Shown in pieces: positions 4,057-27,177 of a DNA stretch of 64,000 nucleotides (position 1 is the stretch's first letter; each line of letters begins with the position of its first letter). This stretch comes from Hyphomicrobiales bacterium (GTDB taxonomy: Bacteria > Pseudomonadota > Alphaproteobacteria > Rhizobiales > Beijerinckiaceae). Location of the stretch: positions 22,736-86,735 of the forward strand of contig JAPLOV010000129.1 in assembly GCA_026400565.1 (NCBI GenBank), read 5' to 3'. The translations under genes and the position numbers were made by a program. The notes beneath the pieces were generated by a model that was not told the DNA's origin, did no database searches, and saw only the letters and a list, made by a program, of their open reading frames with translations.

Positions 4057-6522
4057 TCAACGGCTGATCAGGGCATCGATGCTCCCGATAAACTGGCCAA
4101 GCCCGCGTGCCAGCGATGGCGGCATGCGCGCCGCCATGTCGCTTGCCAAACCGGCGAACGGCTCGAAGCGGAAGACCACGGTCGAGCGCCCGGCAGGAAT
4201 GGCAACGGCCCGGAACAGCACGTTTGCGCGCAGGACAGGCTCTGCCTTGCCATTGACATCGGCGCTCCACCAGCGCTGCCAGGCATCGTTGAGAACCAGA
4301 AAGCCGCAGGCCGGCGACTGGACCTCGACCACCACTTCGGTGTTGGCATAGCGCCGGATGCTGGCGCTGGCGGGCCCGGCTGTTGCCTCCTTCGGCGGTT
4401 CGCACGCGGCGGACTGCGCCGGATCCGGCAGCAGGACAGTGCGCGCCGGATCGAAGCCATCGGGCCATTTTCCGGTGGCGAGCAGCAGCCCGGTATCCAC
4501 CGTGCGGGCCTCGGCCACTACCATGACGCGCGGCAGGGCGGCGCTGTTCTCGTAGATGTAGCCGTCCGCGGTGCGGGCGATCTGGCGCAGCGGTCCTGAC
4601 GCGAGGCTTGCGGCAGTGAGGCTCCTGTCGACCTGTTCGAGCGGCACGCGGCTGGCGATGAAACGCAGGCCAAGCATGTTGGCCAGCATGGAATTGTAGC
4701 CCGGCATCAGCGACGAGAACCGGCGTTGATCGGGCAGGGCGATGTGGTCGCCGGCTCCCGTGGCGCGCGAATAGTCGCCCAGCCTCAGGGGGTTGTAGCC
4801 CAGAGTGTGATCAAGCCCATGGGTCATGCTGGCGTTGGGCCAGTGGAATTCGATGCCGACGAGTTCAATGCGGTCGCGCCGGTCGGGGGCGGCCGTGCGG
4901 GCAAGCCCCGTCTTCAGCAGCGCGATGGTTTCATTGGCGCTGTCAGGGCGCAGGACATCGTATTGCGCCGTCGGCAGGCCGGTGGACTCGCTCGGGCCGT
5001 TGCTGACCGCCAGATCGATACCGACCACCGAGGCGATGAACAGCGCCGCTGCCATGGGCGCTGCCACATGGGCGCGGTGCACGAACCAGAGCATGACGCC
5101 GCCCATCAGCAGCACGATGGCGCTGGCAAGCAGCGGAACGGCCGCCACGTCGAGGCGGCCGGCATGCACGGCCAGCGCGAGCGCGCCGCCAAGGCCCACG
5201 ACGAGGGCCGCCAGCCCCGCGAGCCACTGCCAGAGCCGGGCAGGCCGCGCCACGCGTCCGGTCGCCAGCACATGCACGCAGTAGCCAGCCAGAATGGCGG
5301 CCAGCGCCCCGAAGTTGAACAGCGCATCTGCCGGGCGGCGATAGAAGGCAACGCCCGGCAGGAGGCCGTACAGAAGCTGGAACAGCGGCGTGTAGCGTCC
5401 AAGAGCATAGAGCAGCACCAGCACCGTGGCGATGCTGACCGCGCGGATGGCCGGATCCCAGGCACGGCCCCTCAGGATGCCGATAGCGGCAATCGCCAGA
5501 AGCGGCAGCGCGCCGATGTAGGCCACGCTCATGTTGCGCGCCAGGAAAAGGTCGACCGGGCCGAACACATCGTTCCAGCGCGGGCTCGGCTGGCCCCAAA
5601 AGTTCTCCAGCGGCCCTGCTGCGCCGAACAGGTTCGCCACCAGCAGCGTCAGCAGCGAGGCAGGGTGGAGGCTGCCCTTGCCCGCGCCCTCCAGATCGAT
5701 CATCGGGCGGTTGGATTGCTCCGCCAGCATCAGGGTGAACAGGATCGGCAAGGCTGCCGTCATGATCGTGGCGAGCGCCATGGCACCGAGCGGCTTCAGG
5801 CTGTGCCGGATGGCCCTCAATGGTGCGCCCGATTGCAGCCAGGCTGCCAGGGTGAGGCCTGCCAGCGTGTAGACGCCAATCAGGGCCACCTGGTCACGGC
5901 CGAGCACCATAAGGCCTGCTGTGAAACCTGCGGCGAGGCCATAGCGCGCGCTGCCACGGGAGAGGGCACGCGCCATCAGCCACAGCGTGATGGCGAAATA
6001 GCTCAGGCTCATCACCTGCCCGATGTGCTGGATGCGCCAGGCTGCGGCAGCGCCGAAGGCGAAGACCAAAGCAGTGGTCACGGCCCCGGCAGGCCCCCAG
6101 TTGCGGTCGCGGAACAGCATGACAAGGGCCAGCGCTCCGGCGAGCAGGCTCGCCAGCACCACGGCATCTCCCACCAGTGGGCCGGGGCGCGGAAACAGCC
6201 AGGCTGCGATCAGGTGTGGCGGCGAGGCGATCAGCGATTGCGGGTCGGCAATCTGGGGGTGCCCGGCAAAGACGTGCGGGTTCCAGAACGGCGCCTCGCC
6301 CTTCGCCAGAGAACTGGCGAGGAACTGGAACTGCGGCTGGAAATGAGCCTTGGCATCCCAGGGGATCGTCAGCGCGCCGGACAGCCAGGCCCAGTTCAGC
6401 GCCGCCCAGAACAGCGCAACGAGGCCGATCACACCCCACAGACGCTGACGGGTCCAGAGCGCAGGTTCAGGCCCGGCCGGAGCTTCGGATGAAAGGTCGG
6501 GGGCTGTCTCAGGCGCGCTCAT
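4057..6522 (-). CDS. YfhO-like polytopic membrane protein (putative GT-C glycosyltransferase)
   Basis: PFWNPHVFAGHPQIAD near the N-terminus, many TM helices, C-terminal LVLNDAWQRWWSADVNG..VLRANVLFRAVAIPAG..V.FRFEP domain. Confidence 0.8.
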   Translation of the reverse strand: MSAPETAPDLSSEAPAGPEPALWTRQRLWGVIGLVALFWAALNWAWLSGALTIPWDAKAHFQPQFQFLASSLAKGEAPFWNPHVFAGHPQIADPQSLIASPPHLIAAWLFPRPGPLVGDAVVLASLLAGALALVMLFRDRNWGPAGAVTTALVFAFGAAAAWRIQHIGQVMSLSYFAITLWLMARALSRGSARYGLAAGFTAGLMVLGRDQVALIGVYTLAGLTLAAWLQSGAPLRAIRHSLKPLGAMALATIMTAALPILFTLMLAEQSNRPMIDLEGAGKGSLHPASLLTLLVANLFGAAGPLENFWGQPSPRWNDVFGPVDLFLARNMSVAYIGALPLLAIAAIGILRGRAWDPAIRAVSIATVLVLLYALGRYTPLFQLLYGLLPGVAFYRRPADALFNFGALAAILAGYCVHVLATGRVARPARLWQWLAGLAALVVGLGGALALAVHAGRLDVAAVPLLASAIVLLMGGVMLWFVHRAHVAAPMAAALFIASVVGIDLAVSNGPSESTGLPTAQYDVLRPDSANETIALLKTGLARTAAPDRRDRIELVGIEFHWPNASMTHGLDHTLGYNPLRLGDYSRATGAGDHIALPDQRRFSSLMPGYNSMLANMLGLRFIASRVPLEQVDRSLTAASLASGPLRQIARTADGYIYENSAALPRVMVVAEARTVDTGLLLATGKWPDGFDPARTVLLPDPAQSAACEPPKEATAGPASASIRRYANTEVVVEVQSPACGFLVLNDAWQRWWSADVNGKAEPVLRANVLFRAVAIPAGRSTVVFRFEPFAGLASDMAARMPPSLARGLGQFIGSIDALISR

Positions 6523-6605
6523 GCACGGGACCATAGACGATGCAGACCGGGTGCGTCCTCACTGCGCAGCCGATGTTCCCACAGCAATCGCGCGGCTGCG
6601 TCCGC

Positions 6606-7736
6606 TCAATCGCTGGGGGCGGCGCGCGTCATCAGCACGTCCATGTCGATGTAATGGCCTGCGCGATCGCGCTTGGATTCCAGATACTGGACATTGTGCT
6701 TGTTGGGCCGACCCAGGACCCGGCGGCTGGCCTGCACCTCAAGGCCAGCATGCTTGATCGCGCCGATCTTGACCGGGTTGTTGGTCATGGCCACCACGCG
6801 GCGCACGCCAAGCGGCTTCAGCATCTCGGCGGCGAAATCGAAGCGGCGCTGGTCGAGATCGAAGCCCAGCACTTCGTCGGCGTCATAGGTGTCCCAGCCT
6901 TCGGACTGGAGGCGATAGGCGCGCATCTTGTTGGACAGGCCATTTCCGCGTCCTTCCTGATCGAGATAGAGCAGGATGCCGCCCTCGTTCTCGGCCATCC
7001 AGCGCACGGTATCGCGCAACTGGTCGCCGCAATCGCACTTCAGCGAGCCAAACAGGTCGCCGGTCAGGCAGGCGGAGTGAATCCGCACGTGGACGGGCTC
7101 ATCAAGGTTGAGTTCACCGACAACGATGGCGACCTGATCGCGCAGCCCCTCTCCGCCGCGGAACACCACGAACTCGGTGCGCGGGGCATCTTCGAGCGGC
7201 ACAGGCGCACGGCCGACGATGCTCAGTTCCTCGACCTGCGTCTTGCGGAAACTGTTGATGGCGGTGACTGCGACGCGCACCAGCGGTTCGTCGGCAATGG
7301 CGTCGGGATCGACCGGCACGATGACGAGGGCCGGAATGATCAGCGACAACGCGGTCAGTTCGAGCGCGCTGATGTCGATCGCGGTGGCCGGGGCAACCGG
7401 AGCATCGAGCCTGCCATCGACCTTGAGCACAAGCTGTTCGATGCGGGCCATGTCGATGGTCGGCAGCGCCACGACGCCGGGAACCTTGCGGTTGGCAGCA
7501 CCGAGACGGCGCAGGCGGGCGGCGGGCAGCGCAAGCCGGGCATTGCCGGCGGCAAAGGTGTTCAGGGTCTCGACGAAGCCCGCATCGAGCAGCTCGGCAG
7601 AGACAATCAGAGCAGCGCCCTCGCCACCCATCAGCAGCACCGGGCGGCCTGCACGCATCTCAGACATGGCACGGTCGACCGTCAGGAGATCCTGGCCACG
7701 GTCAAGACCGAGCACCGAACGCTTCTTCACGCTCAT
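6606..7736 (-). CDS. ribA: GTP cyclohydrolase II with a degenerate N-terminal extension
   Basis: VRIHSACLTGDLFGSLKCDCG (three Zn-binding Cys), QEGRGNGL, RAYRLQ, DQRRF, MTNNPVK. Confidence 0.92.
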   Translation of the reverse strand: MSVKKRSVLGLDRGQDLLTVDRAMSEMRAGRPVLLMGGEGAALIVSAELLDAGFVETLNTFAAGNARLALPAARLRRLGAANRKVPGVVALPTIDMARIEQLVLKVDGRLDAPVAPATAIDISALELTALSLIIPALVIVPVDPDAIADEPLVRVAVTAINSFRKTQVEELSIVGRAPVPLEDAPRTEFVVFRGGEGLRDQVAIVVGELNLDEPVHVRIHSACLTGDLFGSLKCDCGDQLRDTVRWMAENEGGILLYLDQEGRGNGLSNKMRAYRLQSEGWDTYDADEVLGFDLDQRRFDFAAEMLKPLGVRRVVAMTNNPVKIGAIKHAGLEVQASRRVLGRPNKHNVQYLESKRDRAGHYIDMDVLMTRAAPSD

Positions 7737-7833
7737 AAAAACACCATTCTTCCTGATCAAAAGGGCCGGATATGGCCATATGCAATTTTACGTAGTTTGT
7801 CATCCAGAGGTTGCAGCCAAACATTTGTCGCTT

Positions 7834-7848
7834 GAACCTTGCATGAAC
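7834..7848 (+). promoter_or_regulatory. GAAC-N7-GAAC (alphaproteobacterial LexA-box-like) in the ribA/cybB divergent region
   Basis: GAACcttgcatGAAC. The match is short and could be chance. Confidence 0.25.
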
Positions 7849-7926
7849 GTTTGCGAACTTCTGTTAAGGATCGATGACATGGCCCCTTCTTGCCAAGCGC
7901 ATGAAAGCCTGTCCGAGGAGAACGCC

Positions 7927-8484
7927 ATGGATGCCCACAAGGAACCGCTCGTTTACAGTGCCGCTGCACGGCATTTTCACTGGATCACCGCGGGCTTCGT
8001 GGTTGTCATGGCACCTGTCGGCGTGATCATGGCCGAGCGCGGCGAGCAGAACATCTGGGACGGCACGACCAACGCGCTCTATTCGGGCCACAAGTTGGCC
8101 GGCTTCATCCTGCTCTTCATTCTTGCGGCCCGGCTGGGCTACCGCCTGATCAAGGGGGCTCCCGCCGATGAGCCGACACTCGAGCCATGGCAGAAGACCG
8201 TCGCGCATATCACCCACTGGGCGATCTATGCCCTGCTGTTTGCCTTGGTTTTCAGTGGCTGGATCGGGATTTCGCTTTATCCCGCGCTCGACATTTTCGG
8301 GTTGTTCTCGCTGCCGGGTCTCGTCGCTCCCAATCAGGCGGCGGCGGCGCAGGCGCTGTTCGCCCACAAGATCTTCGGATTTGCCCTGGCTGGGCTGGTG
8401 GCGATGCACATCGCCGCGTCGCTGTTCCACCATTTCGTGCGCAAGGACGGCGTGCTCCGGCGCATGCTGCCCAGGAAGCCCTGA
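7927..8484 (+). CDS. cybB: Cytochrome b561 (CybB/YceJ family)
   Basis: YSAAARHFHW, HKLAG, HITHWAIY, H..ASLFHHFVRKDGVLRRMLP; four TM helices. Confidence 0.88.
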   Translation: MDAHKEPLVYSAAARHFHWITAGFVVVMAPVGVIMAERGEQNIWDGTTNALYSGHKLAGFILLFILAARLGYRLIKGAPADEPTLEPWQKTVAHITHWAIYALLFALVFSGWIGISLYPALDIFGLFSLPGLVAPNQAAAAQALFAHKIFGFALAGLVAMHIAASLFHHFVRKDGVLRRMLPRKP

Positions 8485-8499
8485 GGCCTCATTTTCTGG

Positions 8500-9336
8500 C
8501 TATATCGGCGTGGCAAACAGGTCGAGATGGCCGACGAGGCCTTGCCGGACCCCGCGCTTGGCCTCCAGCCAGCTGGCAATGTCGGCTTCGCCAACCTTGC
8601 CGGTCTCGCGCACGGCCGCGGCGATGCCAAGGGTGAGCGCATCGACAAGGCCGGCATCGGCGCCGGTCATCAGCCAGGGGCTGTCGGCGGTCTCGGCGCG
8701 ATAGCCGGAGGCCGCAAATGCTCCCGACATGGCGCGGCATGCATCCGGCCCGGCGGCAGGCCCGAAGCCCTTGTCGGAATGCTGGTGGCCGTGAAACGCC
8801 GCGACCATGGCGGCGTCCGCTGCGTGAGGTGGTTGCCATACCTCGCGCCCGTCATAGGTCAGCACCGTATAGAGCGGCAGCCTGCGGGCAGCGAGGGCGC
8901 CGACGAAACGATCGATCCAGCTTGGCGACACCAGATCAAACAGGGCGGCGGCTGTGACGAGATCGGGCTGCCAGTCGAGCACCTTCTCAAGATCGGTATT
9001 GAGATCGGCGCGGCGGAAATCGACCATCAGGCGCTTGCCATCCTTGACCAGCAGCAGTTCCTCGCCAGCCTCACTGGCCTCATCGGCCCACGCGGCAAGA
9101 CGCGTGCGGGCTGCAGCCAGCAGCAGCGGGTCGTAGTCAACCAGCGTCCAGTGCTGGCTGTCGCCAAACAGCCGCCATGTGCCACGCAGGTTCGAGCCCG
9201 CCCCGCAGCCGAGGTCCATGATGCTGATGTGATCGGGCGTGCCGAACCAGTCCGCCACGCGGGCGGCGAGGACTTGGTTGACCGAGCGGTGATCGACGGG
9301 CTCGCGCAGGGCAAGCCATTGTGCTGAGAAACTCAT
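8500..9336 (-). CDS. Class I SAM-dependent methyltransferase
   Basis: Motif I IMDLGCGAGSNLR, LVDYD, DLVTAAALFDLVS. Confidence 0.85.
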   Translation of the reverse strand: MSFSAQWLALREPVDHRSVNQVLAARVADWFGTPDHISIMDLGCGAGSNLRGTWRLFGDSQHWTLVDYDPLLLAAARTRLAAWADEASEAGEELLLVKDGKRLMVDFRRADLNTDLEKVLDWQPDLVTAAALFDLVSPSWIDRFVGALAARRLPLYTVLTYDGREVWQPPHAADAAMVAAFHGHQHSDKGFGPAAGPDACRAMSGAFAASGYRAETADSPWLMTGADAGLVDALTLGIAAAVRETGKVGEADIASWLEAKRGVRQGLVGHLDLFATPI

Positions 9337-9348
9337 GTCAGATCATCC

Positions 9349-10401
9349 TCATGGTCTGATGCCCTTGCACACATCGGCGATGATGCGGGCCGTGTCGGTC
9401 CAGCGCGGCAGGGTTGCCGCCGCAGCCCAGGCGGCATCGGCATGGCGCAGCCGCGCTCCGGCATCGCCGATCAGATAGGCCAGCGCTCCGGCCAGTGCGC
9501 CGGCATCGCCCGGCTCGACCTTCTGCGCGGCACTGTCTGGCAGTTGCGCTGCGCCAGAGCCGGACAGCGTGGTGACGATGGGCAACCCGCGCGCCAGTGC
9601 CTCGGTCAGCGCCATGCCATAGCCTTCGTAATGCGAGGCCATGACAAAGATATCGCTTTGGCGATAGTGCGCATCGACCTCGGTGTCGGTGAGCGCGCCG
9701 TGCAGCGTGACATGGCCATCAAGGCCCTTGGCTGCGATCAGGGCACGAAGAATGGTGCCGTAGCCCGTGCCGCCATGTTCCGCGCCAATGATGGTCAGGT
9801 GCCAAGGCAGCATCGGGATCGCGGCCAGTGCCTCGACCAAGACATCGTAGCCCTTGCGCGGCGACAGCGAGCCGACGGCCAGCAGGCGCACGGGCTGGCC
9901 GAAGCGCCGCTCGCTGGCGCGCTCCGCCGGCTCGACGCCCGGCTCGGCCACAGTAATCCGGCCAGCCGGAACACCGAATTGGGCGATCAGGATGTCGCGT
10001 GTCGCGGTGCTGGTCACGATCACCGCGCTGGCATAGCCAAGGGCCGCCGTCTCCAGCCGGATCAGGTCGGCAGCGCGGGCCGGATCAAGTCCGGTCTCAA
10101 GGCCAAGCGGGTGATGGCACAAAGCGACGACCCGGCCCGCCAGCCCTGCTGCAAACCCGGTCGGAAATGCGCCATAGGCCAGCCCGTCGATCAGGACGGG
10201 CGTGCGCCAGTCCTGTTCGAGCAGCAACCGGCTGGTCTCGGCAAGGTCCACCTCGGAAGGCGACGGAAACGAGCCGGGCAAGGGCACATGCACGGCCTCG
10301 ACGCCGAACTCCGGCAGCAGCCTGAGCACATGCCGGTCATACGCATAGCCCCCCGTCGGGCGGGTTATGTCCCCGGGGATGGCGAAGGCCACCGATGTCA
10401 T
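9349..10401 (-). CDS. Glycosyltransferase family 4 (GT-B)
   Basis: TGGYAYDR, VGSLSPRKG, SHYEGYGMALTEALARGLP (E-x7-E). Confidence 0.92.
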   Translation of the reverse strand: MTSVAFAIPGDITRPTGGYAYDRHVLRLLPEFGVEAVHVPLPGSFPSPSEVDLAETSRLLLEQDWRTPVLIDGLAYGAFPTGFAAGLAGRVVALCHHPLGLETGLDPARAADLIRLETAALGYASAVIVTSTATRDILIAQFGVPAGRITVAEPGVEPAERASERRFGQPVRLLAVGSLSPRKGYDVLVEALAAIPMLPWHLTIIGAEHGGTGYGTILRALIAAKGLDGHVTLHGALTDTEVDAHYRQSDIFVMASHYEGYGMALTEALARGLPIVTTLSGSGAAQLPDSAAQKVEPGDAGALAGALAYLIGDAGARLRHADAAWAAAATLPRWTDTARIIADVCKGIRP

Positions 10402-10799
10402 GCGAGCGGGCCTTCATAGGCGGCGCGAGCGAGATCGGTTTCGTGGAGCGTGACGCGGATGCGGCTCAGCCCCTTGCCATCCTCGCCCAGCGCGCCGGCC
10501 TTTGCGGCCTTCGCGATCTCGTCGAAGATGTGTTTGGCGAGAAACTCGGTGGTGGTGAGGATGCCCTTGAAGGCGGGAACCTCGTCGAGATTCTGATACT
10601 TCAGCGGCTTCAGGGTCTCGGCCAGAACGTCGAGCGCCGCTCCGATGTCGACCACGACATTGTGCCGGGTCATCGTCTCGCGGAAGAAGGCCACATCGAC
10701 CACAAAGGTCGCGCCGTGCATGTTCTGTGCGGGACCAAAGAACGGGTCCGGCAGCGAATGGCCGATCATGATGCGGTCACGGACTTCGACGGAGAACAT
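10398..10799 (-). CDS. 6-pyruvoyl-tetrahydropterin/6-carboxytetrahydropterin synthase-like T-fold protein (COG0720), atypical active site
   Basis: GHSL, FFGPAQNMHGATF, TTEFLA, VTLHET; 4-nt overlap with the GT4 start. Confidence 0.85.
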   Translation of the reverse strand: MFSVEVRDRIMIGHSLPDPFFGPAQNMHGATFVVDVAFFRETMTRHNVVVDIGAALDVLAETLKPLKYQNLDEVPAFKGILTTTEFLAKHIFDEIAKAAKAGALGEDGKGLSRIRVTLHETDLARAAYEGPLA

Positions 10800-10839
10800 G
10801 CGGTGTTTCCTTGTCAGGTGGGCTGGGGATGGTTGGGTT

Positions 10840-11829
10840 TCAGTAGGTCAGGACTGCGGTGAGGTGCGGTGAGCCGGGCGCGAACAGCGCCGGCAGGCGC
10901 TCCGGGGCCTCGGTGAAGGGAATGTCGGCGCTGATCAGCGCATCCAGCCGGTCATCGGCCAGCAATGCCAGCGCCTTGGCCATGCGGCGGGCATAGTCCC
11001 AGCGAGGACGGCGCGCGGTGGCGACATGGCCGACCTGGGACGAGACGAGCCTGAGGCGGCGCGAATGGAAGGCTCCGCCCAGTGCAACCGGCGTATCGCC
11101 CGCGCCATGCCAGCTCAATTCGACGACGGTGCCCTCGAAGCCGGCGAGCGAGATGGCCTTGTTGAGGCCGGCCGCGCTGGCGGATGTGTGGATGACGACA
11201 TCGCAATCGCTGACGCCTTCACCATTGCTGCTGAAGCGGCAACCGAGCGAGGCGGCAATGCCGGCGCGCCTGGTATCGATGTCGATGATCGTGACATCCG
11301 CACCGGGCAGCCTTGCGGCCAGCGAGGCCACCAGCAGCCCGACAACGCCGGCCCCGACCACGGCGATGCGGTCGCCCGGCCCTGCGCCGGCATCCCACAG
11401 AGCGTTCAGCGCGGTTTCGGCATTTGCGGCCAGCACGGCACGGCGCGGCGGCAGGCTCGCAGGCAGCAATGTCAGCTGTTCCGGCGGCAGCGCGAAATGG
11501 GCCTGATGCGGATGCAGCGCGAAGACATGTCGCCCAACCATCATCTCCGGGCCGGCCTCGACGATGCCGACGGCGCAGTAGCCGTACTTCACGGGGAACG
11601 GGAAAGCGCCCGCCATGTTGGGGCCCCTCATCCGCTCGCTTTCCGAGGCTGGCACGCGGCCCTCGAAGACCAGCCGTTCGGTGCCGCGGCTGATGCCGCT
11701 GAACAGGGTCCGCACCAGCGCCTCGCCGGGTCGCGCCTCGATCGTCAGCTCATTCAGGGCGCATTCACGCAGTGCCACATACCACAGGGCGCGGGTCGTG
11801 ATCGGGCCGGTTCGCATGTCTGTCGTCAA
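10840..11829 (-). CDS. Medium-chain (zinc-binding ADH-like) dehydrogenase/reductase
   Basis: GroES-like N-domain LFSGISRGTE..PFPVKYGY and Rossmann motif VVGAGVVG. Confidence 0.88.
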   Translation of the reverse strand: MTTDMRTGPITTRALWYVALRECALNELTIEARPGEALVRTLFSGISRGTERLVFEGRVPASESERMRGPNMAGAFPFPVKYGYCAVGIVEAGPEMMVGRHVFALHPHQAHFALPPEQLTLLPASLPPRRAVLAANAETALNALWDAGAGPGDRIAVVGAGVVGLLVASLAARLPGADVTIIDIDTRRAGIAASLGCRFSSNGEGVSDCDVVIHTSASAAGLNKAISLAGFEGTVVELSWHGAGDTPVALGGAFHSRRLRLVSSQVGHVATARRPRWDYARRMAKALALLADDRLDALISADIPFTEAPERLPALFAPGSPHLTAVLTY

Positions 11830-11867
11830 GGGATTCGTCCAAAGCGCCTGAGTGCCCTATGTGGGGC

Positions 11868-11932
11868 AGAGCCGGTCCGAGGTCCACCTCCGAGATCCAC
11901 CTCCGATGTCCGGCCAAGACATCTGTCCGCCA
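11868..11932 (+). repeat. Degenerate 13-nt tandem repeat in the MDR/opgH divergent region
   Basis: ggtccacctccga gatccacctccga at 11881-11906, flanked by degenerate units. Confidence 0.55.
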
Positions 11933-11997
11933 GATCCGTTGCCCGCCAGACCCCGCCCGTTTCAAGTTGCCCTTGCCACGCCATCCATGAGCCCCAG

Positions 11998-13821
11998 ATG
12001 AACCAGCGTCCCGAACCGTGCAATTTTGCGGCCGAGGCCAGTCAGCCTGCGCCTGAACGGGCTGATGGCCTGACGCCTGCGGGTCTTCAGAGCCGGGCCC
12101 TGATGACACGGCGGCGGCTGACCGTGCTGGTGCTGAACGTCACGCCCTTCGTTGCGCTGATGTGGGGGCTGTCGATCGTGCTCGCCGCCGGCGGCTGGAC
12201 GGTGATCGACGTGGTGATTTTCGTTGCCTTTGCCTTCGGCGCTCCGTGGACCGTGCTGGGCTTCTGGAATGCGGTGATCGGCCTGTGGCTTCTGCACGGT
12301 GTTGGCGATGGCGTGGAGCGGGTTGCACCCTTCGCTGCGGCGGGGCATTCCCATGATCCGGTCACCGTGCGCACCGCCATCTTCATGACCTTGCGCAACG
12401 AGGATCCGGGCCGCGCCATCTTCCGGCTCAAGACCGTCAAGCAGAGTGTCGACGCGACCGGGTTCGGCGCGGCCTATGACTACTTCCTCCTCTCGGACAG
12501 CAATGACGAGACCGTGGCCGCCCGCGAGGAGATGCTGGCGGCCGAGTGGGCGCGCGAGGTCGGCGATCCATCCCGCGTGGTCTATCGCCGCCGCACCGAC
12601 AACACCGGCTACAAGGCTGGCAACGTGCGCGATTTCTGCGAGCGCTGGGGGGATCGCTACGAGCTGATGCTGCCGCTCGATGCCGACTCGCTGATGTCCG
12701 GCGAAACGATCGTCGCCTACACCCGCATGATGCAGGCGTACCCGAAGCTGGGCATCCTGCAAAGCCTCGTGGTCGGCATGCCGTCGCAGTCGGCCTTCGC
12801 CCGCATCTTCCAGTTCGGCATGCGCCAGGGCATGCGCTCCTACACGATGGGGCAGGCCTGGTGGGTGGGTGATTGCGGCCCTTTCTGGGGTCACAACGCC
12901 TTCGTGCGCATCGCCCCGTTCCGCGATGCCTGCCATCTGCCCGTGCTGCCGGGCGGCCCGCCGCTTGGCGGGCATGTGATGAGCCACGATCAGGTCGAGG
13001 CGACGCTGATGCGCCGGGCCGGCTTCGAGGTGCGTGTGCACCCCGAGGAAGGCGGCTCATGGGAAGAGAACCCGCCGACCATGCTCGAATTCGCCAAGCG
13101 CGACCTGCGCTGGTGCCTCGGCAACCTGCAATACATCAAGCTGCTGGACATTCCGGGCCTCAAGCTGATGAGCCGTTTCCAGCTTGTCTGGGCCATCCTG
13201 ATGTTCGTGGGCCTGCCCGCGTGGACGCTGATGATTGCGCTGCTGCCGTTCAAGGTGCTGGAGGATCAGGGTCTGGCCTTCTATCCGTCCGGGCTGGCTG
13301 CGGGGCTCTATGTTCTGTTCTTCGTGATGTATCTTTCGCCGAAGTTTGCCGGCGCTGCCGATATCTTGCTAACAAAGGGTGGCACGGCGCGCTGGGGCGG
13401 GACAGGCAGATTCCTGCTGTCCGCCGCTATCGAGTTGGTGTTCTCCTTCCTGCAAGGGGCGGTCTCGACCTTCCGCACCACGATCTTCATGATCGGGCTT
13501 GCATTCGGCAAATCGACCATCGGCTGGAACGGGCAGTCGCGCGATGCTCAGGCGCTGTCGCTCAGGACAGCCTTGCAAGGGCTCTGGCCGCATCTGCTGT
13601 TCGGCATCTACGTGATCGGCGCGCTCTGGGTGCTGTCGCCCAAGGTGATGTGGTGGGCCATGCCGCTGCTGGCCGGCTATGTGCTTGCGGTGCCGTTTGC
13701 CATGCTCACCGCCGCGCCGGCGCTGGGGCGCTGGTTCCAGCGCAAGGGGCTGTGCGCGATCCCTGAGGATGTGGCACCCCCGCCAGAGGTCGAGACCGTT
13801 CTGAAGGCGTCGCGGTCATGA
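11998..13821 (+). CDS. opgH: Glucan biosynthesis glucosyltransferase H (OpgH/MdoH-like GT2)
   Basis: LSDSND, YRRR..N.GYKAGNV.DFCERWG, LDADS, FWGHNA, SHDQVE, RDLRWCLGNLQ; C-terminal TM bundle. Start set at ATG 11998. Confidence 0.92.
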   Translation: MNQRPEPCNFAAEASQPAPERADGLTPAGLQSRALMTRRRLTVLVLNVTPFVALMWGLSIVLAAGGWTVIDVVIFVAFAFGAPWTVLGFWNAVIGLWLLHGVGDGVERVAPFAAAGHSHDPVTVRTAIFMTLRNEDPGRAIFRLKTVKQSVDATGFGAAYDYFLLSDSNDETVAAREEMLAAEWAREVGDPSRVVYRRRTDNTGYKAGNVRDFCERWGDRYELMLPLDADSLMSGETIVAYTRMMQAYPKLGILQSLVVGMPSQSAFARIFQFGMRQGMRSYTMGQAWWVGDCGPFWGHNAFVRIAPFRDACHLPVLPGGPPLGGHVMSHDQVEATLMRRAGFEVRVHPEEGGSWEENPPTMLEFAKRDLRWCLGNLQYIKLLDIPGLKLMSRFQLVWAILMFVGLPAWTLMIALLPFKVLEDQGLAFYPSGLAAGLYVLFFVMYLSPKFAGAADILLTKGGTARWGGTGRFLLSAAIELVFSFLQGAVSTFRTTIFMIGLAFGKSTIGWNGQSRDAQALSLRTALQGLWPHLLFGIYVIGALWVLSPKVMWWAMPLLAGYVLAVPFAMLTAAPALGRWFQRKGLCAIPEDVAPPPEVETVLKASRS

Positions 13822-14591
13822 GCCCTCTCGTGAACGCGCGCGTGGCCTTGCCGAAGGGCACCGCGCTGTCGCTGCGCCGCTCCTTGCGCGTCTATCACGG
13901 CGACAAGAGCCGGCAGCCGGCCATGGATGCGCTCTATGGCCGCTTCGTGCGGCCGGGCGAACTGGCCTTCGACATCGGCAGCCATGTCGGTGACCGGGTC
14001 TCGTCGTTCCGCCGGCTCGGCGCGCGCGTGGTGGCGCTTGAACCCCAGCCGGGATGCGCCCGTGCGCTCAGACTGATTCATGGCCGCGATGGCATGGTCA
14101 CGCTGGTCGAGGCTGCCTGCGGATCTGCCGCCGGCACAGTCGAGATGAAGATCAACTCCGCCAATCCCACGGTTTCCACGGCTTCGGACGCATTCGTGGT
14201 GGCTGCCAGCGGTGCGGAAGGCTGGGCTGACCAGGTCTGGGACCACACGGTCACCGTGCCCTGCGTGACGCTGGACGGCCTGATCGCGGCCCATGGCGAA
14301 CCGGCCTTCGTCAAGGTCGATGTTGAGGGCTTCGAGCACGCGGTGCTGGCCGGCCTGTCTCGGCCGGTGAAAGCCCTGTCCTTCGAGTTCACGACGATCC
14401 AGCGCGATGTCGCCGATGCGTGCATCCGCCGCCTCGGCGAGATCGGAAACTACCGCTTCAACATCGCGCTCGGCGAGAGCCAGGTGCTGGCCTTCAAGGA
14501 GGCCATCAGCGCGGACGCGATGATCGCACACATCGCGGCCTTGCCGCACGAGGCGAACTCGGGTGATGTCTATGCGGTGTTGCAGGGATAG
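13818..14591 (+). CDS. FkbM family methyltransferase
   Basis: FDIGSHVGD, VALEPQP, FVKVDVEGFE; ATGA overlap with the opgH stop. Confidence 0.9.
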   Translation: MSPLVNARVALPKGTALSLRRSLRVYHGDKSRQPAMDALYGRFVRPGELAFDIGSHVGDRVSSFRRLGARVVALEPQPGCARALRLIHGRDGMVTLVEAACGSAAGTVEMKINSANPTVSTASDAFVVAASGAEGWADQVWDHTVTVPCVTLDGLIAAHGEPAFVKVDVEGFEHAVLAGLSRPVKALSFEFTTIQRDVADACIRRLGEIGNYRFNIALGESQVLAFKEAISADAMIAHIAALPHEANSGDVYAVLQG

Positions 14592-14605: not shown

Positions 14606-14705
14606 CTCATCCTTCGAGGCGCTCAGGATGAGGTGGCGGATCCGGGATCATGATCCACGAGTTTGAATGTCAACAATCCTCATGGTGAGCCTGTCGAACC
14701 ATGAG
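14606..14705. repeat. Inverted pair of REP-like palindromes (BIME/RIME-like)
   Basis: ctcatccttcgaggcgctcaggatgag (14606-14632) and ctcatggtgagcctgtcgaaccatgag (14679-14705) are related and inverted. Confidence 0.7.
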
Positions 14706-14736
14706 TTCCAGTTCGTGCATGAAAGAGGCCGTCTCC

Positions 14737-15714
14737 ATGTTCCGCATCTCCGCCACCCTTGCTGCCATGGCTTTCAGCGCGACCGCGTTCGCGGCGTCGC
14801 TCGATGCGGTGCCGGTGACCGTCACCAACGAATCGGAGCCGGTGCTGTGCGCCGAGAAGGACAACATCACGATCAAGGTGACCTCGCCCGAGGTGCGGCG
14901 CTTCCGGATCGAGGCGGCGCATCCGCCCTATATCGGCGGTCTGGTCAAGGACAACTGGGAGGCCGACTGGACAGCCTGCGACATGACGGGCGATCCGTCG
15001 TTCACCGCGCCGGTACCGCCGCGCCGGGTCACGTTCTACGAAAGCATCGAATACTGGCTGGTGGGCTACACCTTCCCGACCTTCTGGCGGCCTGCCGATA
15101 CCACGTTCCGCGTCGGTGACCGGGTCGAGAAGGGGCTGCATCTGGTCCAGCTCTGGAAGCTCGGCAAGGACAAGTCCTATGAGGTGCTGGTGGTCTATCC
15201 GCAGGATGGCTACTGGCGGGCCCGCCCCATGCCGCCGGCGCACCTGAGCTTCAATGCCTACGGCTCGTCGTTCCTGTTCGGCCCCGTGGAGCAGGAGGGC
15301 CGCCCGGTGGTGAACATCAAGGAGATCGAGTTCGACCCCAAGACGCTCGAGTTCAAGATGGCCTTCAAGGACGGCTCCAACGGCTCGCTGAAGCTTGAGA
15401 GCGTTGACGAGAACCGGATGATCCTCGATGTGGTGCTCGACAGGCCGGTGGGTGGCGGCAAGGCCTTCGCCGCACTGCGCTCGATGTATGTCACTGACTT
15501 CAACAACGACGTGTCACGCATCGCCGTGCGCGAACCCGGCGCAAGGCGCTGGCGCGAGGAGCACATCCTCGATTTCCAGAAGGCGCAGGGCACCGATGTC
15601 TGGATGGGCCGGCTGACCCATTCCCAGCACAACACCTCCTCGCCCGACCATGTCTTCAAGGGCTTCAGCAAGGATCCGAAGCGGCCGGAGCCGGCAGCGG
15701 CGCGCAAGCCCTGA
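14737..15714 (+). CDS. Uncharacterised exported protein
   Basis: Sec signal MFRISATLAAMAFSATAFAA, host-like GC3, beta-rich mature region with two Cys. Confidence 0.8.
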   Translation: MFRISATLAAMAFSATAFAASLDAVPVTVTNESEPVLCAEKDNITIKVTSPEVRRFRIEAAHPPYIGGLVKDNWEADWTACDMTGDPSFTAPVPPRRVTFYESIEYWLVGYTFPTFWRPADTTFRVGDRVEKGLHLVQLWKLGKDKSYEVLVVYPQDGYWRARPMPPAHLSFNAYGSSFLFGPVEQEGRPVVNIKEIEFDPKTLEFKMAFKDGSNGSLKLESVDENRMILDVVLDRPVGGGKAFAALRSMYVTDFNNDVSRIAVREPGARRWREEHILDFQKAQGTDVWMGRLTHSQHNTSSPDHVFKGFSKDPKRPEPAAARKP

Positions 15715-15728
15715 GCCGAGCCTACTGC

Positions 15729-16724
15729 ATGCCCCGTCTTCCGCACCCGCTGCTGGCCGCCGACATCGGAGGCACCCATTGCCGGATCGCCATTGTCGAT
15801 GCGCCGGGTGCCGCGCCGCGCACGGTCATGCGCCTGTCGACGAAGGATGAACCAAGCTGCGAGGCAGCGCTGGCGCGGGCCATCACCGGTGCCGGCACAG
15901 TGCCGCGCTCGGCCATTCTGGCCGTGGCCGGCCCGGTCATCGGGCTTGGCGCAGAACTGACCAATGCCGGCTGGACCCTTGATGGCCCCTCGCTGATGGC
16001 GGCGCTGGGGCTGGAGCAGGGCTTGCTGCTCAACGACTTCGAAGCGCTGGCCTGCTGCCTGCCGGTGCTCGGCGCTGCAGATCTGACGGCCATCGGCGAT
16101 GGCGTTGCAGACCCGGCGGCCGATGGCGCGCGTCTCGTGCTCGGGCCCGGAACCGGATTTGGCGCTGCCGCGCTGGTAGGCCGCGCCGGCCGCTACACCA
16201 TCGTGCCGACCGAGGCTGGCCACATGGAGCTTGGCCCCGCCCTGCCGGACGAGATGGCATTGTGGCCGCTGCTGGAGCGTGTGCATGGACGCGTCACGGT
16301 GGAAAGCGTGCTCTCGGGGGCAGGTCTCGCCCGGCTCGATCTGGCGTTGCGGCATCTTGCCGGCGCGGACCTGACCTGGCGCGATGCCGCCGGGATTGCG
16401 GCAGCCGCCTTTGCCGGCAAGGCCACGGCGCTTGCGGCGGTCAGGCTGTTCGGGCGGCTGCTCGGGCGTGTCGCCGGCGATCTGGCATTGGCACTGAAGG
16501 CAACAGGCGGCGTCTTCCTCGCAGGCGGCATCACGCCGAAGCTGCTGCCGTTGTTCGACCATGGCGAGGTCCGCACCGCTTTTGCCACCAAACCACCAAT
16601 GCAGGCGCTGATGGCCGATGTGCGGCTGAGCGTGGTGACAGGCCCTGACCCGGCCGAGCGGGGGCTTGCGCTGGTGGCGCTCGACCCTGCGGCCTTCGGG
16701 CTTGAAACCCGGCTCTGGGCCTGA
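15729..16724 (+). CDS. glk: Glucokinase
   Basis: ADIGGTHCR, LNDFEA, GPGTGFG, TEAGH, GGVFLAGGI. Confidence 0.9.
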   Translation: MPRLPHPLLAADIGGTHCRIAIVDAPGAAPRTVMRLSTKDEPSCEAALARAITGAGTVPRSAILAVAGPVIGLGAELTNAGWTLDGPSLMAALGLEQGLLLNDFEALACCLPVLGAADLTAIGDGVADPAADGARLVLGPGTGFGAAALVGRAGRYTIVPTEAGHMELGPALPDEMALWPLLERVHGRVTVESVLSGAGLARLDLALRHLAGADLTWRDAAGIAAAAFAGKATALAAVRLFGRLLGRVAGDLALALKATGGVFLAGGITPKLLPLFDHGEVRTAFATKPPMQALMADVRLSVVTGPDPAERGLALVALDPAAFGLETRLWA

Positions 16725-16752
16725 GACAACAAGAGAAACAGGGGAAGATACC

Positions 16753-17499
16753 ATGCGTCTTGCGGGAAAGGTCGCGCTGGTCACCGGCGCCGGGCAGGGC
16801 TTCGGACAAGGCATCGCCGAGACCTTTGCCCGCGAAGGCGCGCGGGTGGCGGTGGTCGATCTTGACCTCGACAAGGCCCGCGCCGTGGCGAAAGGCATCG
16901 GCCGCCGCGCCTTCGCGATCAGGGCCGATGTCTCGAAGGCGCGCGATGTCACGCGGGCGGTGCAGGCGACGCTGAAGCGCTTCGGCGACCTTGAGCTGAT
17001 CGTCAACAATGCCGGCGTGACGCATCGCAACAAGCCGATGCTGGATGTGACCGAGGCTGAGTTCGACCGGGTCTTCGCGGTCAACGTCAAGTCAATCTTC
17101 CTGATGGCGCAGGCTGCGGTCCCGCATCTGCGCCAGCGCGGCGGCGGCGTCATCTGCAACATCGGTTCGACCGCCGGCATCCGGCCAAGGCCTGGCCTGA
17201 CCTGGTACAATGCCAGCAAGGGCGCGGTGAATCTCGTCTCGAAATCCATGGCGGTGGAGCTGGCCCCGGACAGGATCAGGGTCGTGGCCATCGCCCCGGT
17301 GGCCGGCGAGACGCCGCTGCTGGCGACATTCATGGGCGAGGACACCCCGGAAAAGCGCGCGGCTTTCCGGGCCAGCATCCCGATCGGACGGCTTTCGACG
17401 CCTCAGGACATTGCCAATGCCTGCCTGTTCGTCTGCTCCGACGAGGCGGCCATGGTCACCGGTGCCGTGCTGGAGGTCGATGGTGGGCGCTGCATCTGA
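16753..17499 (+). CDS. SDR family oxidoreductase (FabG/glucose 1-dehydrogenase-like)
   Basis: TGAGQGFG, VNNAG, WYNASK (YxxxK), VDGGR. Confidence 0.9.
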   Translation: MRLAGKVALVTGAGQGFGQGIAETFAREGARVAVVDLDLDKARAVAKGIGRRAFAIRADVSKARDVTRAVQATLKRFGDLELIVNNAGVTHRNKPMLDVTEAEFDRVFAVNVKSIFLMAQAAVPHLRQRGGGVICNIGSTAGIRPRPGLTWYNASKGAVNLVSKSMAVELAPDRIRVVAIAPVAGETPLLATFMGEDTPEKRAAFRASIPIGRLSTPQDIANACLFVCSDEAAMVTGAVLEVDGGRCI

Positions 17500-21969: not shown

Positions 21970-21972
21970 CGG

Positions 21973-24838: not shown

Positions 24839-24851
24839 CAGCGCATCTCCC

Positions 24852-25769: not shown

Positions 25770-25781
25770 ACGCGCGTGCCG

Positions 25782-26786
<1,005 letters not shown>

Positions 26787-26829
26787 GGCTTGGCTCCTCG
26801 TGCGAACAGGTCCCGGGTGGTCTCTATGT

Positions 26830-26865
26830 CTGCCATCTGGCCTGCCATCTGACCTGCCATCCGGC
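26830..26865 (+). repeat. 12-nt tandem repeat x3 upstream of moxR
   Basis: ctgccatctggc ctgccatctgac ctgccatccggc. Confidence 0.7.
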
Positions 26866-27177
26866 CCGCAAGCCAGCCTGACGGCCGCCTTGCGAAGGGC
26901 TTGCAGTCCAGATGTGAGCGGCGGACAGGTCGATCTGCCGTTCGGTGCGACCTGCTCAAGACGCGAGACGACATTGCAGGCCCCTTGTGGCAGATTGGCG
27001 GCAAATCGCCGACCCCGCAAGCAGGCGTCATGGCCAGTCCCCAGACAACATGTCGCTGTGGTGACGGAGCGCGAAGCTGGCGCGAAGCTGGAACGACTGC
27101 CAATCCCTTGTCATTGCGTGTAAGTAGACGGGCATTGGTGCGCGGCTTCAAGCCGCGAGCGGTGATCCGGGATCACA

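Follow-up and report, generated by a model that had tools for sequence, protein, structure and literature searches.

The locus discussed here raises the question of why a gene for GTP cyclohydrolase II (ribA) and one for a pterin-synthase-like protein of COG0720 lie among genes for glycosyltransferases, methyltransferases and a glucan synthase of the OpgH type, and whether all of these serve one product. The window, i.e., the whole 64-kb stretch of DNA that was analysed, comes from a freshwater Bosea-like bacterium. In a preliminary description, nine genes were recognized and proposed to couple the synthesis of a non-riboflavin, GTP-derived compound to that of an envelope glycan. All nine ORFs were confirmed, together with their positions, order, strands and spacing. 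The features of the locus are the following:

4057-6534, minus strand: probably GT-C-like polytopic membrane protein of 825 aa, 71 nt downstream of ribA
6606-7736 (or 7760), minus strand: long RibA (GTP_cyclohydro2, 2e-47; NF006456, 477 bits vs. a cutoff of 464)
7927-8484, plus strand: cytochrome b561, 185 aa (Ni_hydr_CYTB, 8e-27)
8500-9336, minus strand: class I SAM-dependent methyltransferase, 278 aa (Methyltransf_25, 5.6e-6); last gene of the core operon
9349-10401, minus strand: GT4 glycosyltransferase, 350 aa (Glycos_transf_1, 7e-27)
10398-10799, minus strand: PTPS-IV (COG0720 T-fold) protein, 133 aa (Pfam PTPS, 4e-21); signature gene of the cluster
10840-11829, minus strand: MDR-superfamily NAD(P) oxidoreductase, 329 aa (weak ADH_zinc_N; BchC-like, 3.8e-14); first gene of the core operon
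11830-11997, no strand: divergent intergenic region of 168 bp between the MDR and opgH genes
11998-13821, plus strand, ATG at 11998: OpgH/MdoH-type membrane GT2, 607 aa (NF003963, the MdoH equivalog, 910 bits vs. a cutoff of 884)
13818-14591, plus strand: FkbM-family methyltransferase, 257 aa (Methyltransf_21, 1e-15; TIGR01444, 3.7e-24), overlapping opgH by 4 nt
14701-15714, plus strand: exported protein, 337 aa, with a signal-peptide-like N-terminus, all-beta in its AF2 model
15729-16724, plus strand: glucokinase (Pfam Glucokinase, 1.5e-79), 14 nt after the gene of the exported protein

The MDR and PTPS-IV genes are separated by 40 nt, those of PTPS-IV and GT4 overlap by 4 nt, and 12 nt lie between GT4 and the methyltransferase. 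The cytochrome b561 gene, which is convergent with the methyltransferase gene and divergent from ribA, has the sequence GAGGAG in front of its ATG at 7927. A shared motif was looked for in the MDR/opgH intergenic region and not found. The family assignments of RibA, the PTPS-like protein, GT4, OpgH, FkbM and cytochrome b561 are backed by Pfam and NCBIfam, with GT4 reaching no NCBIfam equivalog cutoff; the class I methyltransferase has no sequence relative in the PDB. The 825-aa protein had been called a YfhO/GT-C membrane protein. Its ORF is present and its product is probably GT-C-like, judging from its sequence, but the Pfam scores stay below the gathering cutoffs both for YfhO (9.5e-6; 24.7 vs. 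28.5 bits; C-terminal 67 residues only) and for PMT_2 (8.7e-5; 23.2 vs. 26.1 bits).

The window had been described as devoid of ribD, ribE, ribH, folE, queC and queE. A Pfam scan of about 50 of its ORFs, outside of which fell the stretches at about 32.0-34.0, 35.7-38.0, 50.4-51.5, 54.8-55.8 and 62.7-64.0 kb, agrees with this: apart from ribA it revealed no rib, fol or que gene, hence no ribD deaminase, ribE or ribH, and no fbiC or cofGH. No FMN riboswitch was found, there being no Rfam match at the locus, and a riboflavin biosynthesis operon was rejected on these grounds.

Core enzymes and their active-site residues

The COG0720 protein carries, at residues 21-25, the FGPAQ motif that defines the PTPS-IV subfamily in the published definition. 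F21, G22, P23, A24 and Q25 are invariant in one alignment of the subfamily (A2), and G22 and A24 are still so in another with 39 diverse members (A1). The best structure for the subfamily profile was SCO6650 of Streptomyces coelicolor (PDB 3D7J; 1.6e-57), which shares FGPAQ and HGA (see below) with the window protein; working PTPS and QueD structures scored 2e-9 or worse. The crystal structure 3D7J presumably dates from 2008. Upon alignment with rat PTPS, human PTPS and E. coli QueD, the zinc-binding HGH reads HGA, with the loss of one zinc histidine, Ala24 occupies the position of the catalytic Cys27 of QueD, and the Asp-His pair is replaced by Tyr-Gln ('DHKNLD' of PTPS reads 'KYQNLD'). The same losses are seen across the subfamily, and because of them a catalytically active PTPS or QueD was rejected. 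The glutamate of TTTE is retained, as are the glutamates with which the T-fold anchors a 2-amino-4-oxo-pyrimidine. The original "pterin-synthase-like" assignment stands as regards the T-fold family, with the correction that the catalytic residues of PTPS/QueD are missing. Relatives of PTPS-IV also occur in haptophyte algae. A neighbourhood network linking PTPS-IV to PF00925 and PF01872 was published in 2017; in the window, PF00925 (GTP cyclohydrolase II) lies 2.7 kb from PTPS-IV, and no match to RibD_C was obtained in the 64 kb using tblastn.

The oxidoreductase had been described as an MDR dehydrogenase. Its place in the MDR superfamily holds, but the zinc-ligand motifs are absent: on inspection, 'GISRGTE' and 'YGYCAVG' were found where the usual ligand motifs should be. 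A zinc-dependent MDR alcohol dehydrogenase was ruled out, the catalytic Cys and the His-Glu ligands of GHE being missing. The best PDB sequence match was only 2e-7, and structures of ADH matched the Rossmann part only. The same motifs occupy the zinc-ligand sites of the MDR part (32% identity, E 8e-32) of the ortholog P0252, a fusion of PTPS-IV, a HAD phosphatase, a methyltransferase and MDR.

The long RibA consists of a degenerate DHBP-synthase-like (RibB-like) domain, of which the profile matches 11 DHBPS structures (2e-4 to 0.025) and the acidic loop is deleted, followed by a GTP cyclohydrolase II (GCH II) domain with intact catalytic residues. All 22 cluster-linked RibAs retain the zinc cysteines and the equivalents of Tyr105 and Arg128 (pattern RCCCERMYDRKI), and the GCH II domain of the window enzyme, with all catalytic residues kept, is predicted to be active. 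A RibBX without GCH II activity has been reported in a related member of the Hyphomicrobiales, and the long RibA looks like its mirror image, or complement. In Hyphomicrobiales with a GCH II-inactive RibBX, the long RibA is probably the housekeeping enzyme, and for this reason the window RibA may be a housekeeping GCH II rather than a dedicated paralog.

Conservation of the cluster

It had been suggested in the preliminary description that ribA-linked clusters of COG0720, MDR, GT4 and methyltransferase genes recur in other bacteria. This recurrence is real and strong, extending over Alpha-, Beta- and Gammaproteobacteria and Actinomycetota, and the linkage is kept in relatives of the window. 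A survey of 48 species-level loci around PTPS-IV (RibA counted within 6.5 kb), which are phylogenetically non-independent so that independent events are fewer than the percentages suggest, showed a near-invariant core of PTPS-IV (100%), the class I methyltransferase (98%), MDR (92%) and GT4 (85%), accompanied by a RibD-type reductase (RibD_C; 65%), OpgH (56%), FkbM (54%), cytochrome b561 (52%), the long RibA (35%) and the GT-C protein (17%). By a rough estimate, which was not computed, a given gene would turn up within 6.5 kb by chance in well below 1% of cases. The stand-alone RibD-type pyrimidine reductase that adjoins the core in most species had escaped the preliminary description; it is missing from the window and from other Bosea loci. 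The GT-C protein, linked to the cluster exclusively in Hyphomicrobiales and sometimes without ribA, is a lineage-restricted partner. MDR and OpgH genes without a nearby PTPS-IV were seen at some loci (L101, L105, L150 and L153).

RibA adjoins the core in at least four differing arrangements. The gene is located downstream of the core in Bosea and Bradyrhizobium, likewise in Betaproteobacteria, upstream of MDR in the same operon in Rhodobacterales, and divergently from the core in Rhizobiaceae. In the Streptomyces cluster RibA is a short form in which Tyr is changed to Met, and some Bosea loci (L018, L021) have no RibA. The accessory pAt plasmid of A. tumefaciens bears its own long ribA, which indirectly favours a dedicated GCH II paralog, in contrast to the RibBX result above. 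The cluster is present in more than 600 species representatives at least, the hosts including Bradyrhizobium, Methylobacterium, Paracoccus, Agrobacterium, Methylosinus and Streptomyces; some versions are plasmid-borne, and a compact cassette is located on a 59-kb mobilizable plasmid of Microbacterium.

Comparative genomics supports the central idea of the original proposal, a non-riboflavin GTP-derived compound together with envelope machinery. That the locus belongs to a widespread biosynthetic system around PTPS-IV, in which a GTP-derived compound is coupled to that machinery, is a reading to which we give about an even chance. Against it speak the missing RibD-type reductase of the window and other Bosea loci, the adjacency of RibA in no more than about a third of species, the restricted GT-C linkage and the loci with MDR and OpgH but no PTPS-IV nearby. 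The window could also hold separate neighbouring units, namely a ribA for housekeeping, an operon for a small molecule (MDR-PTPS-IV-GT4-methyltransferase) and an ordinary operon for periplasmic glucan (opgH-fkbM-exported protein-glk), without a common product. The inverted cytochrome b561 gene and the divergent promoter region do split the locus into transcription units, the proportions of species with an adjacent RibA or GT-C protein are low, the long RibA may be a housekeeping complement of RibBX, and one locus (L147) combines GT-C, cytochrome b and OpgH without the PTPS core. Such independence is nevertheless rather unlikely. In a reciprocal scan from OpgH, 48 of the 50 loci had MDR as divergent neighbour and 40 had PTPS-IV at 3 kb or less; judged from these neighbourhoods, this OpgH subfamily is dedicated to the PTPS-IV/MDR cluster. 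In addition, several unrelated gene arrangements include RibA and RibD_C, also on accessory plasmids, the window OpgH lacks an OpgG partner beside it, and OpgH is swapped elsewhere for another membrane module, a pattern that a gene placed there by chance should not show.

Two membrane modules

As in the synthesis of osmoregulated periplasmic glucans (OpgGH, OpgB, OpgC), the window contains an OpgH-type GT2 that passes the MdoH model. It differs from the OpgGH system in that the enzyme is of the subfamily tied to MDR and PTPS-IV genes and is flanked by MDR upstream and by FkbM, the exported protein and glucokinase downstream. With neither OpgG nor OpgD adjoining, a canonical opgGH operon was rejected. 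FkbM follows OpgH downstream in 49 of 64 loci and is itself followed in Hyphomicrobiales loci by the exported 337-aa protein, for which no Pfam or NCBIfam match was found. The AF2 model of this protein (pLDDT 79.7, pTM 0.79) has no fold match in the PDB. The order exported protein-glucokinase is repeated in another Bosea locus (L001), and it is possible that glucokinase extends the opgH operon in this lineage.

In Streptomyces, Rhizobiaceae and plasmid versions of the cluster, OpgH is replaced by a CDP-alcohol phosphatidyltransferase and a flippase-like protein. Among the 48 loci, 27 have OpgH, 8 have the CDP-alcohol phosphatidyltransferase and none has both. We know of no system in which the two modules are functionally equivalent. 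The transferase accompanies the core in Streptomyces, Microbacterium, Thiodictyon, Agrobacterium and other Rhizobiaceae, and the flippase-like LPG_synthase_TM protein is present in all of these but Thiodictyon. FkbM occurs in this cluster type as well, and IMPase or HAD phosphatases are associated with the cluster in some lineages. A sulfatase-annotated membrane protein (weak Pfam support, E 0.007) is conserved in the proteobacterial clusters with the transferase. The neighbourhood of a near-identical (98%) Streptomyces homologue of SCO6650 resembles the window in having MDR, GT4, methyltransferase and GTP cyclohydrolase II genes; it differs from it by its short GCH II, a creatininase-family hydrolase and the CDP-alcohol phosphatidyltransferase with flippase-like protein in place of OpgH, FkbM and GT-C. 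Together, the transferase and the flippase-like protein imply a phospholipid carrier, and with the sulfatase-annotated membrane protein the module mirrors a known logic in which a phospholipid is made and flipped and its head group is transferred to a periplasmic glycan. Unlike in the known glucan and phosphatidylinositol routes, the head group envisaged here would be something other than glycerol, ethanolamine or inositol.

These findings raise the alternative that the pathway ends in a glycolipid or in the head group of a membrane lipid, like phosphatidylinositol and its mannosides, and not in a glucan substituent, with the OpgH-type enzyme acting as a lipid or primer glycosyltransferase. 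The route to phosphatidylinositol mannosides, with PIP synthase and the GT4 enzyme PimA, was compared with the module in this respect, and the nearest models of the CDP-alcohol phosphatidyltransferase are PgsA and the archaetidylinositol-phosphate and PIP synthases, all below their cutoffs. The occurrence of the transferase, mostly with LPG_synthase_TM, beside the core in several taxa and the association with IMPase/HAD phosphatases fit such a lipid. It is improbable all the same, as no CDP-alcohol transferase or flippase-like gene was found in the window, the window OpgH exceeds the MdoH equivalog cutoff, and the sulfatase-annotated protein, though with weak Pfam support, suggests transfer of the head group from lipid to another acceptor.

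The proposed pathway and its meaning

The chemical steps of a PTPS-IV pathway, its product, the export or attachment of that product and the role of the GT-C protein are what we infer from the gene content. The long RibA would open GTP to 2,5-diamino-6-ribosylamino-4(3H)-pyrimidinone 5'-phosphate, of which the ribosyl chain would in most species be reduced without deamination by the stand-alone RibD-type reductase. PTPS-IV could bind the 2-amino-4-oxo-pyrimidine ring without zinc-dependent chemistry and, together with the zinc-less MDR enzyme, remodel or cyclise the side chain, from which a diaminopyrimidine, or else a pterin resembling neopterin, might arise. The phosphate would be stripped by a phosphatase, in some lineages one of the HAD or IMPase family. 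GT4 would attach a sugar, and methylation would be the task of the two methyltransferases, class I and FkbM. Transport across the cytoplasmic membrane to its outer face would then fall to the membrane module. Its members in the window would be the glucan synthase of the dedicated OpgH type, the exported protein of 337 aa and glucokinase, possibly also the GT-C protein; Streptomyces, Rhizobiaceae and others would use the CDP-alcohol phosphatidyltransferase with the flippase-like protein.

The scheme can be compared with known systems. The pterin glycosides of cyanobacteria and green sulfur bacteria are made by GTP cyclohydrolase I, PTPS, a reductase and a pteridine glycosyltransferase of the GT4 type, and the sugar of cyanopterin is methylated. 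The cluster would follow a similar logic (GTP-derived heterocycle, T-fold enzyme, oxidoreductase, GT4, O-methylation of the glycoside) but differs in its entry via GTP cyclohydrolase II, in a T-fold protein without the zinc site, Cys and Asp-His, and in the attached RibD-type reductase and membrane/export modules. It shares with the early riboflavin pathway and the RibBX/RibA split of Proteobacteria a RibA whose GCH II residues are intact and whose score exceeds the equivalog cutoff, and a partner reductase of the RibD_C family, whereas no deaminase, lumazine synthase or riboflavin synthase was seen among the scanned ORFs, nor an FMN riboswitch, and the partners are glycosyl- and methyltransferases. 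In faba bean, the product of GTP cyclohydrolase II is turned into the pyrimidine glucosides vicine and convicine. They offer a precedent for a non-flavin, glycosylated pyrimidine of this origin, although in a plant with unrelated downstream enzymes and with no T-fold protein, MDR or envelope module.

A role of PTPS-IV in flavin or deazaflavin (riboflavin/F420) precursor metabolism, supplying or processing intermediates of the 5-amino-6-ribitylamino-uracil type, is hinted at by a review that cites unpublished work on F420 synthesis and fits GCH II and the RibD-type reductase as first enzymes of that route, but it is very improbable given the near-universal GT4 and two methyltransferases, the OpgH and CDP-alcohol-transferase modules without a role there, the absence of fbiC/cofGH, ribE and ribH from the scanned ORFs and the presence of the cluster on dispensable plasmids in some hosts.

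More specifically, the PTPS-IV system could be an undescribed envelope modification, in which a glycosylated, doubly methylated pyrimidine or pterin, derived from the GCH II product via a zinc-less T-fold protein and a zinc-less MDR, is displayed outside the cytoplasm, on an OpgH glucan as in the window or through a dedicated phospholipid carrier, the genes occurring in Proteobacteria and Actinomycetota and on plasmids; we put this forward tentatively, as possible though somewhat doubtful. The term "undescribed", already used in the preliminary description, calls for qualification: no product of the cluster was found named in the open literature, subscription-only literature lying outside the search, but the PTPS-IV name and, since 2017, the linkage to PF00925 (GCH II) and PF01872 (RibD_C) were known.

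The signature protein PTPS-IV had a structure and a subfamily name but no function. With the full gene set, two alternative envelope modules and tractable hosts defined, an orphan enzyme family becomes a testable pathway. If true, it would give GTP a new fate beside flavins, folates, pterins and 7-deazapurines, and the periplasm or membrane a new kind of decoration, which might serve redox chemistry, protection from UV or interaction with a host.

Gene content of the window

All nine genes listed in the preliminary description are present in the window, in the same order and with the same strands and spacings, and the families of the window genes are backed by Pfam and NCBIfam. Together with the genes that follow fkbM, they are arranged as follows:

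4057-6534, minus strand: 825-amino-acid membrane protein, probable GT-C
6606-7736 (or to 7760 with a TTG start), minus strand: ribA
ATG at 7927, plus strand: cytochrome b561, with GAGGAG upstream of the start
8500-9336, minus strand: class I methyltransferase
9349-10401, minus strand: GT4 glycosyltransferase, 12 nt from the methyltransferase gene
10398-10799, minus strand: COG0720 protein (PTPS-IV), overlapping the GT4 gene by 4 nt
10840-11829, minus strand: MDR oxidoreductase, 40 nt from the COG0720 gene
ATG at 11998, plus strand: OpgH-type GT2, 168 bp away from the divergently oriented MDR gene
3' of opgH with a 4-nt overlap, plus strand: FkbM methyltransferase
14701-15714, plus strand: exported 337-amino-acid protein, continuing the opgH-fkbM unit
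15729-17499, plus strand: glucokinase and SDR, the former starting 14 nt after the exported-protein gene

RibA scored above the cutoff of equivalog model NF006456 (477 versus 464 bits) and OpgH above that of the MdoH model NF003963 (910 versus 884 bits). The 825-residue protein is labeled a probable GT-C enzyme because its matches to YfhO and PMT_2 were both below threshold. The exported protein is all-beta and highly conserved, with thousands of homologues at 60-99 % identity. It matched no Pfam family, and its confident AF2 model (pLDDT 79.7) found no fold match in the PDB. The PDB also held no sequence relative of the class I methyltransferase. The glucokinase and SDR genes may be an extension of the opgH operon.

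The remaining window genes are chromosomal housekeeping genes (bc1 complex, RF3, UvrC, PRPP synthetase, L25, Pth, YchF, MoaE, and HemF). Among the approximately 50 window ORFs scanned, no rib, fol, or que genes were found beyond ribA, and a search of the window with Rfam returned no riboswitch or any other family. Promoter and terminator scans of the window gave nothing informative, and no motif was shared by the MDR/opgH intergenic regions (n = 58), in which the recurrent k-mer was coding sequence. Of lake metatranscriptome contigs, just three pieces of 151 nt were obtained, over ribA. Approximately 2-4 kb past the GT-C gene, at 256-2431, lie genes for an inositol-monophosphatase-family protein and for the envelope integrity protein EipA, and an aerotolerance-operon-like set (BatA, DUF4159, DUF58, and a MoxR-type AAA ATPase) without relation to the cluster occupies 19870-27020. 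The names borne by close homologues and the runs in which this DNA occurs suggest a freshwater, Bosea-like bacterium of the Hyphomicrobiales as its source.

The PTPS-IV subfamily and its neighborhood

Scanning 1.84 billion representative proteins for the T-fold subfamily at E ≤ 1e-10 yielded a compact group of 508 clusters. A profile of 39 diverse members had one strong match among solved structures, 3D7J, 'uncharacterized protein SCO6650' of Streptomyces coelicolor (1.6e-57), while working PTPS and QueD structures all scored 2e-9 or worse. In the alignments, HGA takes the place of the HGH zinc motif, the position of the catalytic Cys of QueD is the invariant Ala of the FGPAQ motif, and Tyr-Gln stands where PTPS has its Asp-His pair. 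Retained are the glutamates (TTTE, E120) by which T-fold enzymes hold a 2-amino-4-oxo-pyrimidine ring. The 2008 paper on the SCO6650 structure reportedly came to a matching view, describing neither zinc nor a triad, a pterin-like pocket, and no assigned function. A 1037-residue protein from a Logan contig (P0252) fuses PTPS-IV with a HAD phosphatase, a methyltransferase, and MDR. Proteins of haptophyte algae related to Emiliania and Gephyrocapsa (P0211/P0155) carry three or four tandem PTPS-IV domains each, and the subfamily therefore extends into eukaryotes.

FGPAQ is the published signature of PTPS-IV. A neighborhood-network paper from 2017 contains an FGPAQ cluster of 561 sequences with PF00925 and PF01872 as neighbors, and a review from 2016 places PTPS-IV in F420 synthesis on the basis of unpublished work. 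In the open literature, no product was found to be named for SCO6650, SCO6655, 3D7J, PTPS-IV, or the gene combination, nor was any mention found of glycosyltransferase, methyltransferase, OpgH, or phospholipid modules with PTPS-IV.

A PTPS-IV scan with one genome per species gave more than 600 matches, the best 80 of which were taken with 10-kb flanks. These loci come from Hyphomicrobiales, Rhodobacterales, Rhodospirillales, Caulobacterales, Betaproteobacteria, and Gammaproteobacteria, and were searched by tblastn with the window proteins and with families obtained by clustering all locus ORFs.

Table. Genes within 6.5 kb of the PTPS-IV gene, as percentage of the 48 loci flanked by 6 kb or more on either side
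Class I methyltransferase: 98
MDR: 92
GT4: 85
Stand-alone RibD_C pyrimidine reductase (Pfam 2e-35): 65
OpgH: 56
FkbM: 54
Cytochrome b561: 52
RibA: 35
Exported protein: 21
GT-C: 17
CDP-alcohol phosphatidyltransferase: 17
LPG_synthase_TM flippase-like protein: 12
ABC exporter: 10

OpgH was present in 27 and the CDP-alcohol transferase in 8 of the 48 loci, and never both together. In six Rhodobacterales loci, genes for IMPase-family phosphatases lie within the cluster.

The reciprocal search used an alignment of five cluster OpgH proteins against metagenome contigs and delivered 80 loci with 52-90 % identity. Where the sequence extended 1.8 kb or more upstream of OpgH (50 loci), MDR was divergently adjacent to it in 48 and PTPS-IV lay at most 3 kb away in 40, which marks this OpgH subfamily as a dedicated partner rather than a chance neighbor. 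FkbM followed 3' of OpgH in 49/64 loci, no OpgG was found beside OpgH of the cluster subfamily, and a few loci retain the MDR/OpgH pair alone. The coupling to OpgH proposed in the preliminary description has strong comparative support. The opposite reading, that the block consists of separate neighboring units, is unlikely: both this reciprocal result and the multiple arrangements of RibA and RibD_C (see below) argue against it.

Two further loci deserve description. The order opgH-fkbM-exported protein-glucokinase-SDR is repeated in a Bosea locus (L001). In a metagenome locus (L147, 4936-11600), genes for a GT-C-like protein and cytochrome b561 directly adjoin opgH-fkbM-exported protein, and the MDR/PTPS-IV/GT4/methyltransferase core is missing from the vicinity.

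RibA, RibD, and the second module type

The placement of RibA differs among lineages, in arrangements unrelated to each other. It is located 3' of cytochrome b and RibD_C in Bosea, Alsobacter, Azorhizobium, and Bradyrhizobium. In Betaproteobacteria and one Caulobacteraceae genome it comes behind GT4 and RibD_C, in Rhodobacterales it immediately precedes MDR in the same transcription unit, and in Rhizobiaceae the ribA and MDR genes diverge. The RibD-type reductase is gone from the locus in the Bosea lineage. As to diamino versus deaminated substrates, the NCBIfam scores of the RibD-type reductases were all under the cutoffs. The linkage with RibA and RibD_C lends strong comparative support to the GTP connection made in the preliminary description, which had named as a joint case against itself a ribA that is the only copy and a linkage that is not conserved; the linkage is conserved.

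The linked RibAs (n = 22) without exception belong to the long form and have kept the zinc cysteines, Tyr105, and Arg128. Their N-terminal part of some 180 residues (7200-7736 in the window) gave eleven matches to DHBP synthase structures (2e-4 to 0.025), in register but with the acidic catalytic loop deleted, so that the long RibA would combine a dead RibB domain with a live RibA domain. As judged from sequence, it appears to be the mirror image of RibBX, with its live RibB and dead RibA-like domain; a Rhodopseudomonas preprint reports GCH II activity to be absent from the RibX domain of RibBX. For these reasons the long RibA is probably the housekeeping enzyme in Hyphomicrobiales, and the window ribA may be the sole GCH II of its genome. 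On the Agrobacterium tumefaciens pAt plasmid, the long ribA is an extra copy, and the Streptomyces cluster has a GCH II of its own.

In a Streptomyces locus with a 98 %-identical SCO6650 homologue, a CDP-alcohol phosphatidyltransferase gene is divergent from those for MDR, PTPS-IV, GT4, methyltransferase, and LPG_synthase_TM, followed further on by genes for a hydrolase of the creatininase family and for a short GCH II with Met replacing Tyr. This arrangement presumably agrees with earlier work on SCO6655. In L084 (14119-15608), the short Streptomyces GCH II ('LRAMALQ', Met for the catalytic Tyr) directly adjoins the hydrolase, a juxtaposition that suggests synthesis of the same pyrimidine by two enzymes.

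PTPS-IV was found on twenty-one plasmids. Methylosinus trichosporium OB3b plasmid pOB3b1 carries the OpgH type, with RibD. The mobilizable 59-kb plasmid of Microbacterium sp. SGAir0570 (L086) has a compact seven-gene cassette (7194-12969) for a CDP-alcohol transferase, MDR, PTPS-IV, GT4, methyltransferase, flippase-like protein, and RibD, in which no GTP cyclohydrolase II was found. The pAt plasmid combines long ribA, the CDP-alcohol transferase, the flippase-like protein, and a sulfatase-annotated membrane protein with the core, RibD, and cytochrome b. The latter membrane protein occurs in eleven loci of the second type; its 'sulfatase' label derives from record annotation and a weak Pfam match (E 0.007).

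The second module resembles known phospholipid logic, with a phospholipid synthase, a flippase, and possibly a head-group transferase of the OpgB/EptA kind, which by analogy suggests that the compound is destined for a place outside the cytoplasm. If the pathway actually ended in the head group of a membrane lipid, this would agree with the second module type; the window gene set does not fit it, and this alternative is doubtful. A role as flavin or F420 precursor is very improbable, as it leaves both the near-universal GT4 and methyltransferases and the carriage on plasmids unaccounted for.

A possible biosynthetic route

The model favored here, to which about an even chance is given, is that of a GTP-derived compound that is finished by phosphatase, GT4, and methyltransferases and exported or conjugated by a membrane module. 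What the sequences themselves show are the families of the genes, a GCH II with its residues intact, the loss of PTPS/QueD catalytic residues with ring-binding residues kept, zinc-less MDR motifs, conserved linkages, and the fusion protein. GCH II would open GTP, after which a RibD-type enzyme would reduce the ribosyl chain without deamination, since the deaminase is never in the cluster. PTPS-IV and MDR would then remodel the side chain. The best family match of MDR is BchC, a secondary-alcohol dehydrogenase that works beside a heteroaromatic ring. A chemically economical option would be that C2' is oxidized and the ring then closed with the 5-amino group, giving a dihydroneopterin-phosphate-like pterin independently of GTP cyclohydrolase I. 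Phosphatase, GT4, and two methyltransferases would complete the compound before its export or conjugation by the membrane module. The interpretation in the preliminary description is supported in part: the chemistry, the attachment to glucan, and the role of GT-C are hypotheses. Methylobamine, a UVA absorber of Methylobacterium, was considered as the cluster product and dropped: the skeleton reported for it, with moieties of galactopyranose, pyrano-oxazine, and iminoacetic acid, contains no ring of obvious GTP origin.

In conclusion, the locus does not qualify for any of the characterized pathways considered, and it belongs with a named T-fold subfamily without assigned function. To our knowledge, the wider PTPS-IV gene set has no prior description. 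In the type represented by the window, the compound would sit on or with the glucan made by OpgH.
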